The notes below the pieces were generated by a model. That model saw only the letters and a list, made by a program, of their open reading frames with translations, made no database searches and was not told the DNA's origin. The translations under genes and the position numbers were made by a program. DNA of 64,000 bases, from positions 52,795 to 116,794 of the IMG/VR virus record IMGVR_UViG_3300045684_000050. One strand, written 5' to 3'. This document shows positions 6,391-64,000 of this stretch, piece after piece. Each line of letters opens with the position of its first letter. Position 1 is the first letter of the stretch. Source of the DNA: a virus.

Positions 6391-7110
6391 CTATAAAGGA
6401 TTTACCGTCTGTGAAGCATCTTTGTCATCTGACTTGACATCAGTAGCTAATGTTATATTCAATAAGCCAGCAAGTAACTGTATACATCTCTGGACAACCG
6501 ACTCTTGATACTTAGGATCTAAGAAAAACTCTTGGTCTAAGAACTTACATATTGTCTTTTCATCACAAGTCTCATACTTAACTAAATCTAATGGATTCGT
6601 AAATGGGCCTTCTACACTTAATGTCTTTGGCTTCGCTCCTTCTCCATGCAACACATATAAACTTTTCTTACCGGCACGATCTTTTATACTGTAAATATTG
6701 CCAGATGAAATAAATGACTTTCTCGATCCAGAAAACATAGATAAGTCTCCCCAATTGATAAAATCAAAATTGGTGCCATCAGGTAAAGTGATTTGCTTCA
6801 ATTGATCTCCTAAAAATTCCGGAAGATGCTTTTCAGACTTCATCCAGGTACATCCTACAGGAGGCAGACATGGACACTCATTTAAATCAACTTCACACAT
6901 ATGAACACAATCAAGAAAATATTGATCGATAGTTTCTCTAATTCCGGCCTTTAATTTAGTCTCTTGTTGATTAAAAATAACAGCATTCTTGACCATCATA
7001 AAAAAACGATACACTAACATATTTGGAAGTGAAATTGCTCGCTGGGGATGCAAACTCTTATCCTCTAGTGGTAAGCGAATATCATCAATATATGATTGTA
7101 TAGTCCTCAT
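6391..7110 (-). CDS. crAss-like tail ring protein
   Basis: N-terminal TIQSYIDDIR, CPCLPPVGCTWMKSEKHLP motif, C-terminal EFFLDP; synteny. Confidence 0.55.
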   Translation of the reverse strand: MRTIQSYIDDIRLPLEDKSLHPQRAISLPNMLVYRFFMMVKNAVIFNQQETKLKAGIRETIDQYFLDCVHMCEVDLNECPCLPPVGCTWMKSEKHLPEFLGDQLKQITLPDGTNFDFINWGDLSMFSGSRKSFISSGNIYSIKDRAGKKSLYVLHGEGAKPKTLSVEGPFTNPLDLVKYETCDEKTICKFLDQEFFLDPKYQESVVQRCIQLLAGLLNITLATDVKSDDKDASQTVNPL

Positions 7111-14809: not shown

Positions 14810-17280
14810 TAAAATCTTGTTTCAGATGAGTAATTAATTACTACATCACTAGCCGTTGCTTCTGTTGCTGTAACAGTTATGCTTTTTATTGCCGCTCTAT
14901 TAAGAGGTATGACATCAGAGTACGAACCTCCGTATATTATGTGTCGATATGTTTCGTTATCATATAAAACTATATCTATTAACACTTTTACATTTTCCCG
15001 AACTTGAATATTAATTTTTCTTACATGAACTGTTGATGTAAATCCAGTAGCCACAATACTAGTTGTACCTCCTGTAGATATAGTACCTTCTACACTTCCA
15101 CTACCTGTTTCTGCAAGATATTGATGCTTAGGTGATGGAATAACATTATCATCATTCCCATATTCACTTTCCGACCCTATTACTGTATAAGGTTCTCCAT
15201 TTTCGTTAATATCACTGTATGTTACGGTCCCCCCGTAATTAAAAAATTGTCTATAAAAGGTAGTTTCAGTTTCTTGATATTCAATAGTTAAGTTTCTATT
15301 AGCAGTTACTCCCATATCACTATCTGTCCAAAAACTCCACTCTTTTATATTATCAGCATAAACATAAAATGAGGTTAATGCGTCTGCGGTGTTAGTATAC
15401 CATCCATTTGAAATAGTTACATTTGTAGTTCCTCTAAGGGTACTTGTAATAGCATTTATATTTTTAGAAAAGAATCCAATTCTGGTAATGGTTAGACCTC
15501 CTGGATCAGGTAAACCTATTTTAATCCATCCAGTGAAAGGTCGATTTAGATGTATTAAATGATTTTGAAGTGAGTTTGTAATAACAACCTCTGCCCCAGT
15601 CAAAGACCCCCCTTGTCCATAAATAGAATTACTTGGACTAAACCTGCCAGTATGTAATATGTGAGTTATATCCTGAGATAAATTAGATGTATGAGTATTC
15701 GTAATATCTTGCCCAAATCCAGGAAATGCTGGATAGAGTTCAGAGTATGTTCCAGGTGTAAATATAGTAGGTGTTTCAAGATGACTATCTTTCATCTTAA
15801 CTACTGTATAAGGTCTAACCCCTATTACTTCTTCACTATAAGGTAATGAGGTGTCTGCATTATCCCAGGCAGTTACATTGCCCAACACTGTATATGGTGT
15901 ACCATCAAATTTAAGATCAGATGTAGTTATAGTACCACCATCATTATTATACTCACGAATAAATCTAGTCTTTGTTTCTTGTAAAGAAACACTAAATGTT
16001 CTTGCTGTTGGGCTTCCACTTTTTAAATCTGTAAAAAATGTAAAATAATGACAATCCTCCACATCATATGTTACTGTAGCAACTAGTGTATTATTTGTTT
16101 GAGAATACCACCCATCACCTTCATCAGTTGCATTAGTAAGTGTAGAAGGTATATTTAAATTCTCCGATACCTGTCCAATAAGATTTCCTACAGTAGAGCT
16201 ATTATCTTCTATCGTTAATAATACCCTACCAGTAAATGCCCTGTTGAAATCAACCCTCCACTTAGAAACTCCTGTTAAAAACTGGGTTATTTTAGAACCC
16301 GAAGGGAATGGATTATTACCTGAAGGTGAACTGGTTTTTTGTATAATATCCCCCCCAACCGTGGATGTGTGAGTGTTAAATAATAGAGTGTCAAGATTTA
16401 ATACCCCATCTTCCCTATTTAATGTAACAGGTGTTTCGGGATAATAATCCTCCATAACCAACGACTGGGAACTTCTGTTAATATCCCCATCGCTAAAACC
16501 AACAATACTTTCTATACCTTGTACAGTATAAGGTGTTCCATCCGCTAAGTAATCTACACTGCTAATTACACCATTTGTATTTATAAACTCTCTTATGAAG
16601 GTTACTTCTGTTTCTAAAAACTCAACAGTAAATAAAGTATCTGCAGTAGAATCATTAATAAACTCTACATCAAAAAAGAATGTTCTTACATCTTTTCCGT
16701 AAAAAGCGAGTAATCCATCAAGGAATTGAAGTGTATGGGTATAAGTTAAATCCCCATTATTGGTCATGCTGGATATAGTGTACAGGAATTCCTCTGAAGC
16801 ATTACTTATAGTCCCTCCACTAGTAAATACCCCGTCTCTTCCCCCTAATCTTACTCTAATTTGCCCAGTAAATGGTCTATTTAAAGTTACTTTAATTGTA
16901 TTAGGACCTGCATTATTTACAGCAATATATCTATTTACATCTAAAACGAATCCCCCATGATCTGCCACAGCTGGGTTAACATCCAGAGCTATATCTGAAT
17001 TCACAACTTCCAAATAGGATACTAAGTCTGGTAATCCAAAAGCAGCAGTGTGTACTTGTCTAACAATAGGACTATTAGTTCCTGTAGCTGTATTTATTAT
17101 GCTGGTGGCAGGGCCTACTTGAAAAGTAGCACTATCAAATGTTTCATCGAAACTATCCCGCATTATAACAGATTGCGGCTTATCACTAAGTAACTTTTCA
17201 ATGTTACATAAGTGTGCCTGAATCTTACTAGACAAGAATAATTGCTGTTGTATTTGTCCACTTTTCGCTGATCCAGCCAT
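14809..17280 (-). CDS. Tail-associated protein with three internal modules
   Basis: Three copies of ET..F.R....G.....D....G.PYTV.G and of NR.FTG; located among the fibre genes. Confidence 0.55.
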   Translation of the reverse strand: MAGSAKSGQIQQQLFLSSKIQAHLCNIEKLLSDKPQSVIMRDSFDETFDSATFQVGPATSIINTATGTNSPIVRQVHTAAFGLPDLVSYLEVVNSDIALDVNPAVADHGGFVLDVNRYIAVNNAGPNTIKVTLNRPFTGQIRVRLGGRDGVFTSGGTISNASEEFLYTISSMTNNGDLTYTHTLQFLDGLLAFYGKDVRTFFFDVEFINDSTADTLFTVEFLETEVTFIREFINTNGVISSVDYLADGTPYTVQGIESIVGFSDGDINRSSQSLVMEDYYPETPVTLNREDGVLNLDTLLFNTHTSTVGGDIIQKTSSPSGNNPFPSGSKITQFLTGVSKWRVDFNRAFTGRVLLTIEDNSSTVGNLIGQVSENLNIPSTLTNATDEGDGWYSQTNNTLVATVTYDVEDCHYFTFFTDLKSGSPTARTFSVSLQETKTRFIREYNNDGGTITTSDLKFDGTPYTVLGNVTAWDNADTSLPYSEEVIGVRPYTVVKMKDSHLETPTIFTPGTYSELYPAFPGFGQDITNTHTSNLSQDITHILHTGRFSPSNSIYGQGGSLTGAEVVITNSLQNHLIHLNRPFTGWIKIGLPDPGGLTITRIGFFSKNINAITSTLRGTTNVTISNGWYTNTADALTSFYVYADNIKEWSFWTDSDMGVTANRNLTIEYQETETTFYRQFFNYGGTVTYSDINENGEPYTVIGSESEYGNDDNVIPSPKHQYLAETGSGSVEGTISTGGTTSIVATGFTSTVHVRKINIQVRENVKVLIDIVLYDNETYRHIIYGGSYSDVIPLNRAAIKSITVTATEATASDVVINYSSETRF

Positions 17281-17290
17281 TTGCTTTTGT

Positions 17291-17878
17291 TTATGCTATG
17301 TAATTAATTAAAAACAAGGAAATCAATAATGCCAATATCTTACTTCCGATATATAACCAATTATTCCCTCTAAAAAACTTATCAGTAATTGCTGTATTAC
17401 CAATATAAAATATATCTCGGCCCCATAATACATTTAGTGTTGCATCAAAAAACACCCAAAATATAAATGGGAATAAAAGTAAAAACCAAATATTAATGAA
17501 AGAGGATAGCACTATAACTATCCCTCTTTGAACTATTCTCGAAGTATGATCTTCAATATAATCTTTATCCTTAATATGCTCTACATCTATGTAGGCACTA
17601 ATCACCGTATAAGACAAAAAAAGAATAATAGGTATATAAACAGTCGTAGATCCAAAAATATGTAACAGGATGTAAGCTAATGCTCCACCTAATACAGTAT
17701 AAATAAGATCGATAAAATCAAACCCTTTAGATTTTATCTGATCATATACTTCTTTCCCAAACCCAGACAGGATAGCTAAAGACAATCCTATCATAGGGTG
17801 AGCAAAGAATGATACAACTAAACAGATAATAAAACCGGCTATAGCATGTAGTATATAATCTTTTCTAAAATAATCCAT
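17291..17878 (-). CDS. Multi-pass membrane protein
   Basis: D..LH..AG...GKEVYD...FDFIDL..T..GG motif common in phage membrane proteins; several TM segments. Confidence 0.6.
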   Translation of the reverse strand: MDYFRKDYILHAIAGFIICLVVSFFAHPMIGLSLAILSGFGKEVYDQIKSKGFDFIDLIYTVLGGALAYILLHIFGSTTVYIPIILFLSYTVISAYIDVEHIKDKDYIEDHTSRIVQRGIVIVLSSFINIWFLLLFPFIFWVFFDATLNVLWGRDIFYIGNTAITDKFFRGNNWLYIGSKILALLISLFLINYIA

Positions 17879-60537: not shown

Positions 60538-60717
60538 ACCAAACTACACATCAGGTATATTTAATAATTTAATACCCAAAAATACAATCCCTACTGAAAA
60601 CACTTAACAAAAAAAACCTGTACCTGGAAATCATGTACCTGGAGATCAAATACCAATACTAGACTGGATCACAGTAAGACATATCCTTAATACAACATAT
60701 GGAATAAACCTGCCATC

Positions 60718-60882
60718 ATGATAACAAAAACAAAATCCAGAACCGTAACCTGTAATAACTGCCAAAAACCATTCACCATAACCATAACACCCCAAAGAAC
60801 AGTATACTACTGCCCACATTGCAATACAAGAAAATTTATGAATTACGAACCACCATATATTCCTATGAAGTCAGAATGGTGA
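60718..60882 (+). CDS. 54-aa zinc-ribbon protein
   Basis: Hand-translated: CNNC...CPHC. Confidence 0.6.
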   Translation: MITKTKSRTVTCNNCQKPFTITITPQRTVYYCPHCNTRKFMNYEPPYIPMKSEW

Positions 60883-61603
60883 GCCCCTAACACTCTCCTA
60901 CCTCCACATTCCAATACTTTATAAATACTCCCCGAAATATATACATCACCCCGTAATCAACATATATCAATATGTTCACACTATCCTTACCATTACTGGG
61001 ATCTACATAAAATACTACACTATCATCCTCCATTGTGTGAAGCCACACCGGCTATTTAGTTCAGGACCAAATATACTTCCATTTTTTTTACTACCCTAAA
61101 TAACCACCCCCCACTTATCCTACAAAATAACCCCCCCCCCTCCTACTCAAAAACTAACTTTCTTACTAGCTAACATGTTTAATTTTTTAAAATAATTTAT
61201 TACCTATACCCATGCCCAAAACTAAACTTTTCGACTACATACCAAAATATTAATATTGTATAGGGGCTGTCGATTTCGGTTTTTTGGTGCCCCGTCATGA
61301 ATATATAGGTATATACTTTTTGTGGAATAAAAGAGATAGGAAAGTATATACAGGTAGATGTTAGAGTTTAGATACATACCTATATGTTAAACATGTATTT
61401 ATATAGTGATGTGAATGATTGAACATGTAGGCATATATTGAAAGTGAAAAATATATGTAGATCTATATTAGTAATAAGCCTTATAAACCTGATCCAGATA
61501 CGCAAGTTGTTAAAAATATATTTTATTTATGTGTCTAGATATTAGGTTTAATAGATAATTAAAGTTATCTTTAAGTTATTATTTAATTAAACAATAACAA
61601 CTT
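60883..61603. other. Long noncoding region with a C10 tract and an abrupt A/C-rich to G/T-richer switch near 61260; candidate origin or genome-end region
   Basis: No ORF in the track; composition seen directly. Confidence 0.45.
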
Positions 61604-62446
61604 ATGAAAAATTTAAATTTATTTGACGTAGTGAAAATCGCCCAATTACCAACAGTAAAAGATATTAATGGTATATCATTAATAGACGACGAAAAAACTT
61701 TTTGCACTTACAGGACTGATACAGGTGCAAAACTTGGAACAGTTGGTCAGTCTTATAAGGTGATGCAAAACAGCGGAATTTATAACATTATGCAACAAGC
61801 TTGCGACATTGCAAAAATTGACCCTGAAGGCATCAAATTTCTACCTTTACAAGGAGGTCAAAAAGTGAGTTTTCAGGTACAGTTAAAGGACATTAAGGTA
61901 TCAGGATATGACATGGTAAACATGTATTATTCATTCCTTACTTCTCACGATGGAAGTACAGGCACTGCAACTGATCTAATTAATTTTCGTGTATATTGTT
62001 CCAATACATGGAGACAGGCAATGAAAATGATGAAGAAGTATAAACACACCGTTAACGGTAACCATGCAGCCATTGAGCAAGCTAACCACATTTTAGAAGC
62101 CATTGAAGAATCCATGATGCTACAAGAATTGTATACATCAATGCATGAAACGCCTTTCAGCAAGTCAGATGCAAAAGAATTTTGCTTTGAACTTTTAGGA
62201 TTCGACGATGAAGCAATTGAAAAGAGTGCACGCAAATTTGGTAAATATGATCGTTTTATGGAAGGTCTTGGACACGAATTAAAAGAAGTAGGCGAGACTG
62301 TATGGGGAGCATATAACGGTATAACGTACACGACAAACCACCTAATTAACAGGAAGGACAAACAAATGGATTATGTTCTTTTAAAGGAAGGTCACACTCT
62401 CACGAAGAAAGCTTTAAAAATCTTAGTTCCTGAATACGCGAATTAA
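61604..62446 (+). CDS. DUF932-like protein
   Basis: LGTVG..Y..MQN...SHDGS...R.YC.NT...KHT.N...W.AYNG.TY. Confidence 0.8.
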   Translation: MKNLNLFDVVKIAQLPTVKDINGISLIDDEKTFCTYRTDTGAKLGTVGQSYKVMQNSGIYNIMQQACDIAKIDPEGIKFLPLQGGQKVSFQVQLKDIKVSGYDMVNMYYSFLTSHDGSTGTATDLINFRVYCSNTWRQAMKMMKKYKHTVNGNHAAIEQANHILEAIEESMMLQELYTSMHETPFSKSDAKEFCFELLGFDDEAIEKSARKFGKYDRFMEGLGHELKEVGETVWGAYNGITYTTNHLINRKDKQMDYVLLKEGHTLTKKALKILVPEYAN

Positions 62447-62449
62447 TAC

Positions 62450-62508
62450 GGTTGACTGATGATATTTTAATAATCGAAAGGTAGGCAATAATTGCCTACC
62501 TTTCAACC
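62450..62508 (+). ncRNA. Type I hammerhead-ribozyme-like element, copy 1
   Basis: GGTTGA-CTGATGA-(short stem II)-GAAA-GGTAGGC..GCCTACC-TT-TCAACC; non-canonical U.C at the base of stem II. Confidence 0.55.
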
Positions 62509-62555
62509 ATAAAAAAGGTAAGTATTTATTAATTAACTAAAAAAACAATAACAAC

Positions 62556-62927
62556 ATGTTAGAACAAATTTACATCAGAAGTGATCAAGTGGAATATGTT
62601 ACAGGGAAAACATATTGCCCCAATGGATTGTATATTGATGGCTCTTTAATCCACAACAATCATTCATTGCCTGAAACATTTGACGAAATGCAAGAAGAAA
62701 TATTCCGAATGTTCATTATTTATGAACCTTGCGGGAATAGTTCTATTGGTCATGGTATCTCAGCACCTTCTCCAGAAGAAGCAATAGAAGAACTTTGTGA
62801 AATTCTCATGAATGAATACGATAGCCATGAGGAAATTCATTTATTTGCCATTAAAGAGATCATAACAACGACGCAAACAAGGACACAGCACTTGAGGAAG
62901 TTATCTGAATTATATAACCACATATAG
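62556..62927 (+). CDS. Acidic hypothetical early protein
   Basis: ORF flanked by the two hairpin elements. Confidence 0.7.
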   Translation: MLEQIYIRSDQVEYVTGKTYCPNGLYIDGSLIHNNHSLPETFDEMQEEIFRMFIIYEPCGNSSIGHGISAPSPEEAIEELCEILMNEYDSHEEIHLFAIKEIITTTQTRTQHLRKLSELYNHI

Positions 62928-62985
62928 GTTAACTGATGATATTTTAATAATCGATAGGTAGGCAATTATTGCCTACCTATTAACC
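62927..62985 (+). ncRNA. Hammerhead-like element, copy 2 (GAAA changed to GATA)
   Basis: Near-identical to copy 1 with compensatory base changes. Confidence 0.5.
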
Positions 62986-63005
62986 ATAAAAACAATAACA
63001 ACACC

Positions 63006-63179
63006 ATGAAAAACATTTTAATTTACACCTTTGCCACTATTGCATTTTTTGCATCTATGTATTTACTTGCATTATCTTTGCTCGAGAACAATTCCAAATA
63101 CTTTGCATCTGGTTTCATGTTCTTGATATTATGCTCTATTATCATTTTATTTATTGACTATAAAACCACATACAAATAA
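63006..63179 (+). CDS. 57-aa two-TM membrane protein
   Basis: Hand-translated; preceded by the AACAATAACAAC leader. Confidence 0.6.
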   Translation: MKNILIYTFATIAFFASMYLLALSLLENNSKYFASGFMFLILCSIIILFIDYKTTYK

Positions 63180-63250
63180 CCATAAAAATCGGCTCCAGAA
63201 CTTTTATACTCCGATAGGACTGATTATGTAATCATATAAACACATAAACC

Positions 63251-63505
63251 ATGAAAAATGAAAAATTGATAAACGTAAGTAAATATTGGCTAATTTGTAT
63301 TACCTCAGAGATGGCACTAAATTACAACACAGGACTTATTAATAGCCAAGGTAGTCCGTTCTCACAATTTAGAAAAGTAGTACCAGATTGCCCAAGGTTA
63401 AAAAAATCAGCCTTAATTTGGGTAGATCAACTACTCAAGGAGAATGAATTTAAACCAACTAATTATTTCACTAAGACAATAAACAAGATCAATGAGACAG
63501 CCTAA
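63251..63505 (+). CDS. Hypothetical early protein
   Basis: ORF track. Confidence 0.6.
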   Translation: MKNEKLINVSKYWLICITSEMALNYNTGLINSQGSPFSQFRKVVPDCPRLKKSALIWVDQLLKENEFKPTNYFTKTINKINETA

Positions 63506-63647
63506 GATTTATTATATAATCATCTTTGCCTTTTGTATGACCGCTTCAATTTTCACAGTAGATCATATAAATGGACTACTATGGACATTAATTACATTCA
63601 TTGGTTTCATCTCCTTTATGCTTACACTACATCACATGAATGATTGA
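63492..63647 (+). CDS. 51-aa two-TM membrane protein
   Basis: Hand-translated MRQPKIYYIIIFAFC...; followed by a terminator. Confidence 0.5.
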   Translation: MRQPKIYYIIIFAFCMTASIFTVDHINGLLWTLITFIGFISFMLTLHHMND

Positions 63648-63674: not shown

Positions 63675-63709
63675 ATAGGCCATTATTAAATTAATGGCCT
63701 ATTTTTTTT
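63675..63709 (+). terminator. Intrinsic terminator
   Basis: ATAGGCCATTA/TAATGGCCTAT 11-bp stem plus a T-run. Confidence 0.8.
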
Positions 63710-63722
63710 ATCCATTGCCAGG

Positions 63723-64000
63723 TGAATATATACCTATATGTTCATTTATACAGGTACATATATTCATAGATGACTGAATATGTAACCAGATATATTCATA
63801 GATGGCTGAATATGTAACCAGATATATTCATAGATGGCTGAATATATACCTATATGTTCATTTATACAGGTACATATATTCATAGATGACTGAATATGTA
63901 ACCAGATATATTCATAGATGACTGAATATGTAACCAGATATATTCATAGATGACTGAATATGTAACCAGATATATTCATAGATGACTGAATATGTAACCA
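63723..64000. repeat. Noncoding tandem array of 32-bp units (ATATATTCATAGATGRCTGAATATGTAACCAG) interspersed with two 52-bp variant units; continues past the window end
   Basis: tgtaacca at 63781, 63813, 63897, 63929, 63961, 63993; 52-bp units start at 63723 and 63839. Confidence 0.95.

Follow-up and report, generated by a model that had tools for sequence, protein, structure and literature searches.

Twin hammerhead-like repeats in a crAss-like phage operon as candidate intercistronic stem-loops

In prophages, hammerhead ribozymes flank single genes; in these RNAs stem II may comprise as few as 2 bp, a U10.1-U11.1 mismatch is compatible with activity, and candidates with a mispair adjoining the core were rejected (Perreault et al. 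2011, PMC3088659). A second group of structured elements comprises the REP sequences and other intercistronic stabiliser hairpins, such as that of malE-malF, which are strong hairpins without a T-run located past stop codons within operons, and which are thought to block 3' exonucleases and to set relative gene dosage. In the early region of phage T7 the RNase III sites R0.3-R1.3 are stem-loops directly 3' of consecutive early genes on one polycistronic transcript, and they too have no T-run. Finally, in T4-type PeSL (promoter-early stem-loop) cassettes, direct repeats with a stem-loop bracket a small orphan early gene.

The twin elements described here share features with each of these systems. 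Like REP and the stabiliser hairpins they are strong hairpins that follow stop codons inside an operon with no T-run; in contrast to REP, which occur in tens to hundreds of copies with a cognate transposase, they are present in two copies and have an additional outer helix and a conserved 22-nt segment. Like the T7 sites they form a quasi-continuous helix of ~18 bp that is broken on one strand only, with the junction 12 bp from the loop on the 3' side, but the interruption is a 22-nt one-sided bulge instead of a small internal loop and the host is presumably of Bacteroidota type. As with PeSL, the repeats bracket a small orphan early gene, but there is no promoter consensus, there are two copies only and there is no sign of excision. 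In common with the prophage hammerheads (PMC3088659) they occur in phage DNA and flank a single gene on both sides, and copy 1 has the helix order, CUGAUGA, GAAA, A15.1-U16.1 and a non-G at position 17; they differ in the U.C at 10.1/11.1, a stem II of three A-U pairs, the pairing of position 14 with 17 and the U14 of copy 2, and in that no covariance-model match, tertiary contact or relative accompanies the twins.

The repeats and the operon that contains them

The window analysed is the final 64 kb (64,000 nt) of virus record IMGVR_UViG_3300045684_000050, which comprises 116,794 bp with a G+C content of 34%; positions are those of the window unless the genome or a contig is named. The relevant features are as follows.

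61604-63647, + strand, five-gene same-strand operon, flanked by a ~1-kb non-coding region and a canonical terminator
61604-62446, + strand, DUF932-family gene, operon gene 1, 280 aa (PF06067, E 7.8e-22)
62450-62515, + strand, twin element copy 1, 66 nt, direct repeat
62450-62455 and 62503-62508, + strand, outer helix arms of copy 1
62456-62477, + strand, A/U-rich 22-nt segment of copy 1, CTGATGATATTTTAATAATCGA
62478-62502, + strand, hairpin of copy 1 (the perfect 13-bp stem spans 62476-62504)
62509-62515, + strand, tail of copy 1, ATAAAAA, shared by both copies
62556-62927, + strand, 123-aa gene between the twin copies (open reading frame and family search; no family assigned)
62927-62992, + strand, twin element copy 2, 66 nt, direct repeat, 61/66 identical to copy 1
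62927-62932 and 62980-62985, + strand, outer helix arms of copy 2
62933-62954, + strand, 22-nt segment of copy 2, same as that of copy 1
62955-62979, + strand, hairpin of copy 2
62986-62992, + strand, tail of copy 2
63006-63179, + strand, 57-aa hydrophobic small gene (open reading frame), starting 13 nt past copy 2
63675-63710, + strand, canonical intrinsic terminator at the operon end, an 11-bp stem followed by eight T

The terminase and portal of the phage match crAss-type PHROG families. Its closest named relative is Cellulophaga phage phi14:2, with a TerL that is 27% identical, and the closest metagenomic relatives, on contigs of up to ~112 kb, have TerL proteins that are 30-41% identical. 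Judged by these identities, the phage belongs to a distant crAss-like lineage, within which it is an orphan. A public-run lookup placed the sequence in one sediment metagenome DNA run, which is probably its source, and listed no RNA run.

The two elements occupy equivalent positions, in accord with the description given by the sequence-only reading, which had located them at or near the stop codons of the DUF932-like gene and of the gene that follows. Copy 1 begins with GGTTGA at 62450, 3 nt past the TAA of the DUF932 gene (62444-62446), and copy 2 begins with GGTTAA, the first base of which (62927) is the final G of the TAG that ends the 123-aa gene (62925-62927), such that this base is shared by the two features. 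As both copies start no more than 3 nt from the upstream stop codon, whereas the distance to the next ATG is 40 nt for copy 1 and 13 nt for copy 2, the elements are tied to gene 3' ends. Within the element, stop codons in all three frames (TGA, TGA, TAG) precede the hairpin. The conserved 22-mer also contains a three-codon mini-ORF, ATG ATA TTT TAA TAA, at 62459-62473 and 62936-62950.

The copies are 92% identical and lie 477 nt apart. Both contain CTGATGA, a 13-nt A/T-rich stretch, a 10-bp GGTAGGCAAT/ATTGCCTACC stem and a T plus H; GAAA in copy 1 corresponds to GATA in copy 2, and the 3' arms are TCAACC and TTAACC, respectively. The elements had been described as 59 nt long; the number of elements holds, but the repeat extends to 66 nt through the seven additional shared bases ATAAAAA. 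The five differences between the copies are at element positions 5 (G>A; 62454/62931), 29 (A>T; 62478/62955), 41 (A>T at the centre of the loop; 62490/62967), 53 (T>A; 62502/62979) and 55 (C>T; 62504/62981). Four of the five form two compensatory pairs, one in the 6-bp outer helix and the other at the base of the hairpin. Thus the earlier statement that the differences are paired is correct for these four, but had left out the fifth, the central loop base. The 22-nt segment and the 7-nt tail are identical at 29 of 29 positions, and the variation falls in the stems. A 40-nt pattern describing the element had 0 expected matches in shuffled sequences. The twin feature is real, structured and non-random, and its two members are paralogous copies of one structured intercistronic element.

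Fold, sequence relatives and the possible role of the elements

Both elements contain a perfect hairpin with a 3-nt loop, the stem of which is 13 bp in copy 1 and 12 bp in copy 2; in both it is enclosed by a 6-bp outer helix, GGTTGA/TCAACC in copy 1. The twins are among just 13 perfect hairpins with a stem of at least 9 bp genome-wide and, with the exception of two terminators, are the strongest hairpins 3' of + strand genes anywhere in the genome. The predicted fold energies of 72-nt stretches of the + strand are -22.1 and -20.7 kcal/mol, compared with ~-8.5 kcal/mol for shuffles (z -6.0 and -4.7). When the outer helix and a 12-bp hairpin are taken as the model, 17 of 17 pairs are standard in both copies, and in two of them both bases differ (G-C has become A-U, and A-U has become U-A), which confirms the paired differences that had been noticed from the sequence. 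For five random substitutions the probability of obtaining at least two double-compensated pairs is 1.8e-4, and that of at least one is 0.035. The minimum-free-energy fold consists of a weak 5' hairpin and a 14-bp hairpin. No pair of this fold is broken between the copies, the changes being G.U to A-U, G-C to G.U and A-U to U-A (P = 0.006). It should be emphasized that the G>A change at position 5 also fits the conversion of G5.U22 to A5-U22 in the weak 5' hairpin, and hence that the covariation of stem I, the outer helix, is not unique to that helix. The covariation of positions 14 and 17 (hammerhead numbering) had been thought to favour an extended hairpin, and this proposal is borne out by a pair probability of 0.94-0.98 in the ensemble.

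The reading we favour, to which we would assign a probability of roughly 0.4, is that the twins are intercistronic RNA stem-loops that govern mRNA processing or stability. Each copy in the mRNA would fold into a closed domain comprising the 6-bp outer helix, the 22-nt A/U-rich segment in single-stranded form and a perfect 12-14-bp hairpin, the 3' strand running uninterrupted through the hairpin and the outer helix, which stack directly upon each other. Such an element might punctuate the transcript without terminating it. Ribosomes would stop ahead of the hairpin, which could act as a barrier to 3'-to-5' exonucleases, and either the hairpin or the exposed A/U-rich segment may be a site for a host endonuclease of the RNase III type or the RNase E/Y type, respectively; an exposed A/U-rich 22-mer is the kind of sequence that RNase E/Y-type enzymes cut. 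The outcome would be that the DUF932 and 123-aa gene segments obtain separate stability and dosage. The two-copy repeat, the stable + strand fold, the standard pairs with their double changes, the invariance of the unpaired segment and tail, the tie to gene 3' ends and the missing T-run are consistent with this proposal, as is the T-less intercistronic hairpin of the nearest available relative (see below), and the predicted fold, in which 6 and 12 bp are stacked around the 22-nt one-sided bulge, is loosely compatible with T7-type RNase III geometry. In contrast, a plain stabiliser hairpin leaves both the conserved 22-nt segment and the kept outer helix unexplained, and the hammerhead-like layout of copy 1 (see below) is improbable by chance in one genome. 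If the stem-loop reading is correct, the elements are one more example of a structure that tunes gene dosage in a phage operon, which would be unsurprising but would aid the annotation of an orphan lineage of ~105-117-kb crAss-like phages.

The further copies in the genome and in relatives that the sequence-only reading had looked to were not found in any of the collections searched. Neither BLAST nor R1, a covariance model built from both twin copies, identified a third copy in the 116.8-kb genome. Exact 22-mer and 21-mer patterns from the conserved segment and a 23-mer from the hairpin had no match in viral or metagenome contig collections. The same patterns gave one match in a genome contig collection, at 6398-6422 of JBLHWU010000013.1, a Saprospiraceae metagenome-assembled genome. 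The 25-nt identity to the conserved segment is located within a coding sequence (NPADDILIIES) and has no flanking helices; as the stems are missing we treat the match as probably due to chance, although it is rarer than expected for a 25-mer. The peptide resembles the start of a type IX secretion sorting domain. Comparison with GenBank phages by blastn returned noise only, pattern searches for the DUF932 protein and TerL in viral contigs returned nothing, and no homologue of the DUF932 protein at E <= 1e-10 was present among 5.8 billion proteins. On phi14:2 and Rudgehvirus, R1 detected only hairpins at E 0.2-0.6; in Rudgehvirus the DUF932 homologue overlaps the next gene. The nearest available relative (TerL 41% identical) is syntenic, displaying a ~1-kb non-coding gap (16500-17460 of its contig) followed by a small-gene operon, and after the first gene of that operon there is a different, T-less intercistronic hairpin. 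The one contig of this relative that was covered contained neither CUGAUGA nor a layout resembling a hammerhead, and no R1 match in it was better than E 0.8.

Few relatives of the 123-aa protein were identified, and these are 26-44% identical over ~100 aa. In homologues of its gene on short contigs the 3' flank is a plain spacer in one and a canonical terminator in the other. The protein also matches 13 stretches of a 2384-aa protein that contains HYR-like repeats and a CHU_C sorting signal. In a Logan contig, a tRNA-like 3' half (GGTTCGAGTCC...) is present at 1310-1410, 5' of a homologue of the 123-aa gene.

It could be argued that the elements act at the level of DNA, the 27-29-bp perfect palindrome and its flanking 6-bp inverted repeat serving either as a recombination linker or cassette boundary, or as a cruciform or operator for a dimeric protein. 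In one version of this proposal the 123-aa gene would be inserted or lost by exchange between the direct repeats, as occurs with PeSL and boundary sequences. The direct repeats indeed bracket exactly one small orphan gene, homologues of which are found in unrelated contexts without the element; changes from one Watson-Crick pair to another suit DNA as well as RNA, both strands are able to fold, and many long palindromes follow small genes in the 20.4-26.4-kb region of the genome. Set against these observations, the element occurs just twice, and in no other record searched, the missing promoter consensus sets the elements apart from PeSL, the polarity is opposite to that of attC, and both copies maintain the orientation and the adjacency to stop codons that are expected of a transcript feature. 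Among the contigs of the sediment run only the source contig matched, and no joint skipping the 123-aa gene was observed. We regard a DNA-level role as unlikely. A processing site and a recombination site, the fallback ideas in the sequence-only reading, both count as candidates.

The covariation data could also reflect a neutral history, in which a hairpin-bearing intergenic stretch was recently duplicated in place and the paired differences arose through template-switch correction and not through selection. Such correction in palindromes can yield paired changes without selection. A local duplication accords with two copies that are 92% identical at a distance of 477 nt and with the lack of conservation outside the source genome. 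In addition, a covariation shuffle control, which has little power with two sequences, was non-significant (127 of 500 shuffles reached the observed value). Thus, the earlier claim that the covariation reveals selection on structure survives in part: the paired changes are real, but with two copies and no relatives selection is indistinguishable from templated mutation in a palindrome. Against the neutral history are the location of four of the five differences at paired positions, with none in the 29 unpaired conserved bases, the 50 nt that separate the two sides of the outer-helix pair, which is far for templated correction, and the finding that the boundaries of the repeat match the structure and not the adjoining coding sequence. 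A neutral remnant is, in our judgement, quite unlikely.

A further possibility, which is pure analogy, is that the elements are promoters or signals for a phage RNA polymerase, in which case the polymerase would recognise the template strand of a DNA hairpin extruded with a 3-nt loop, in the manner of the N4 early promoters, and transcription starting near AACCATAAAAA would drive the next gene. The stems of the twins are, however, twice the length of those in N4 promoter hairpins; the third AACCATAAAAA lacks a hairpin, the spacing to the next ATG varies and no other early gene carries such an element. In its favour, AACCATAAAAA recurs at three consecutive gene junctions and TAnnTTTG, a -7 motif of Bacteroidota type, is absent from the + strand between 56 and 63 kb, and thus the genes of the DUF932 operon may use a different type of promoter. 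There is also a precedent in the virion polymerase of phi14:2, which prefers single-stranded DNA and the early transcripts of which have no common upstream motif (bioRxiv 10.1101/2020.03.07.982082). We consider this role for the twins improbable.

The hammerhead likeness

Copy 1 has the order of a type I hammerhead, as had been recognized from the sequence: stem I, CUGAUGA, a short stem II, GAAA (GATA in copy 2), stem III, U, H and the return strand of stem I. The C3-U4-G5-A6-N7-G8-A9 core is located directly 3' of stem I in both copies (CTGATGA at 62456-62462 and 62933-62939), and the cuts predicted after 62502 and 62979 do correspond to element position 53 in each. If copy 1, at least, were a self-cleaving non-canonical type I hammerhead that cuts after 62502, early polycistronic RNA would be processed gene by gene. 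Copy 1 indeed combines CUGAUGA, GAAA, A15.1-U16.1, U17 and a paired 1.1-2.1 between helices of 6 and 11 bp, and the prophage hammerheads, with their 2-bp stem II and tolerated U10.1-U11.1, provide a precedent (PMC3088659). It was also the only match in the genome to a lenient hammerhead descriptor (minimum lengths of 5 bp for stem I and 4 bp for stem III, with a mismatch permitted at 10.1/11.1). A strict descriptor matched nothing in the whole genome. Conditional simulation predicted 0.003 chance lenient matches per genome of the same size and composition, and therefore the likeness is not expected by chance within one genome; over the ~250,000 windows scanned, however, lenient layouts are expected many times by chance.

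The details of the core argue against catalysis. The G12-A13-A14 core with A15.1-U16.1 is broken in copy 2, which has GATA and hence U14, and position 14 pairs with 17. Position 17 itself is U in copy 1 and A in copy 2, which are permitted identities, yet the base is complementary to 14 and predicted to be paired. In place of a Watson-Crick 10.1-11.1 pair there is a U.C mismatch followed by three A-U pairs, and a mismatch adjoining the core was a reason for rejection in PMC3088659. The pairing probability of stem II is 0.002-0.003, the hammerhead fold is 4.6-5.5 kcal/mol less favourable than the minimum-free-energy fold, and in the favoured fold G12 and A13 pair with 1.2 and 1.1 at a probability of 0.58-0.87. 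Stem I is an open 6-bp helix with no bulge, and no loop-loop or pseudoknot partner is evident; the sole tertiary or pseudoknot candidate, in which UUUUA would form 4-5 A-U pairs with UAAAA of the tail, is in competition with stem II. The Rfam hammerhead models (RF00163, RF00008 and others) gave no match at E <= 10 whether 801 nt, 81 nt or the whole genome was searched, although the 45-position RF00163 penalises a 10-bp stem III, and no hammerhead family reached its gathering score in the 64-kb window. As the change of A14 to U at an invariant core position of copy 2 is accompanied by U17A in its partner, and the hairpin pair is thereby kept, the substitution is a signature of selection on the hairpin and not on a catalytic core.

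The hammerhead reading has thus fared poorly: membership of the family is rejected on the lack of an Rfam match, the U.C mismatch with an unformed stem II, the pairing of A14 with U17 and the A14U change in copy 2. Judging from the predicted folds, the probability that copy 2 actively self-cleaves is near zero, and the CUGAUGA ... GAAA core would appear to be a coincidence or a relic that is non-catalytic in the favoured fold. Self-cleavage of copy 1 with gene-by-gene processing is very improbable. A related scenario has copy 1 cutting after 62502 as a minimal, non-canonical type I hammerhead with U10.1.C11.1, U17 and a 3-bp stem II made up wholly of A-U pairs, while copy 2 is a dead paralogue kept as a hairpin, the pair representing a hammerhead that is turning into a protein-dependent processing or stability site in an early operon; this we view as a long shot. 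Were copy 1 to cleave, hammerheads would be seen to tolerate a wider range of sequences at 10.1/11.1 and in stem II, and the twins would constitute a natural pair for the study of how ribozymes decay into, or originate from, simple hairpins. The elements also show that ribozymes called from motifs in A/T-rich phage DNA should be treated with caution.

The weakest proposal is that a - strand RNA acts, either as an antisense small RNA or as a terminator of antisense transcription, its hairpin reaching 19 bp via G.U pairs. It draws on a more stable fold (-27.0 and -24.3 kcal/mol; z -6.9 and -5.7), by which the - strand may be the acting one, and on a weak match of - strand 62945-63016 to FopS, a small RNA family of Bacteroidetes (22.6 bits, E 0.61). 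It is most improbable given that this match, to which the hairpin and the antisense of the beginning of the 57-aa gene give rise, falls far short of the gathering score of 56, that there are no nearby - strand genes or promoters and no U-tract 3' of the - strand hairpin, and that the C>T change at position 55 creates an A.C mismatch on the - strand and a G.U pair on the + strand.

Other element classes and neighbouring motifs

Several other classes of element were compared with the twins and rejected. They are not intrinsic terminators, as there is no T-run and their tails are TCAACCATAAAAA and TTAACCATAAAAA; a terminator scan called 63675-63710 and not the twins. The phage possesses at least eight canonical hairpin-plus-T-run terminators, including that at 63675-63710, whereas the twins precede AACCATAAAAA. 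A PeSL cassette boundary was dismissed because no promoter consensus is present in or beside the element, of which there are two copies only; no sigma-70-type site was found on the + strand within the elements. Integron attC sites (5' RYYYAAC ... GTTRRRY 3', with extrahelical bases) have the reverse arrangement, since the twins read GGTTGA ... TCAACC, their 5' arm bearing GTT and their 3' arm AAC, and have perfect stems without bulges. A link to the terminal iterons (32-nt tandem repeats) was discounted: TGACTGA is shared without the preceding ATATATTNATAGA, and copy 2 has TAACTGA. CUGAUGA lacks the suitably placed GA partner that a K-turn or C/D box would require, and the only snoRNA match scored 14.8 bits; for a MITE or target-site duplication there is only a trivial ATA.

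Window positions 60540-61600, ahead of the DUF932 operon, comprise ~1 kb without credible genes and contain many TATATACCTATAT-like motifs. The 32-nt tandem unit, ATATATTCATAGATGACTGAATATGTAACCAG, occurs in at least 11 copies in a single orientation across window 63758-64000 and genome 1-190, and genome positions 2126 and 2177 bear related motifs. The record's 127-nt 'direct terminal repeat' falls entirely within this array, and may therefore reflect the array or a circular assembly and not true ends. In the 20.4-26.4-kb region of the genome, long imperfect palindromes lie 3' of most small - strand genes. They often start with ...TAAC, which overlaps the stop codon, and end with GTTAGG or GTTAT, and they differ from the twin elements in both polarity and perfection.

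The motif AACCAT(A/G)AAAA is present at each junction of a four-gene run (62505, 62982, 63178 and 63247), these junctions holding 4 of the 10 genome-wide matches with no more than one mismatch. The third copy, an occurrence of TAACCATAAAAA, lacks a hairpin and shares bases with the stop codon at the end of the 57-aa gene. The motif may mark junctions, or it may echo the start context ACCATGAAAAA. A leader, ACAATAACAA(C/T), just 5' of many + strand starts (window 61591, 62545 and 62992; genome 289, 3257, 3801 and 6939), is probably an A-rich translation leader without a Shine-Dalgarno sequence.
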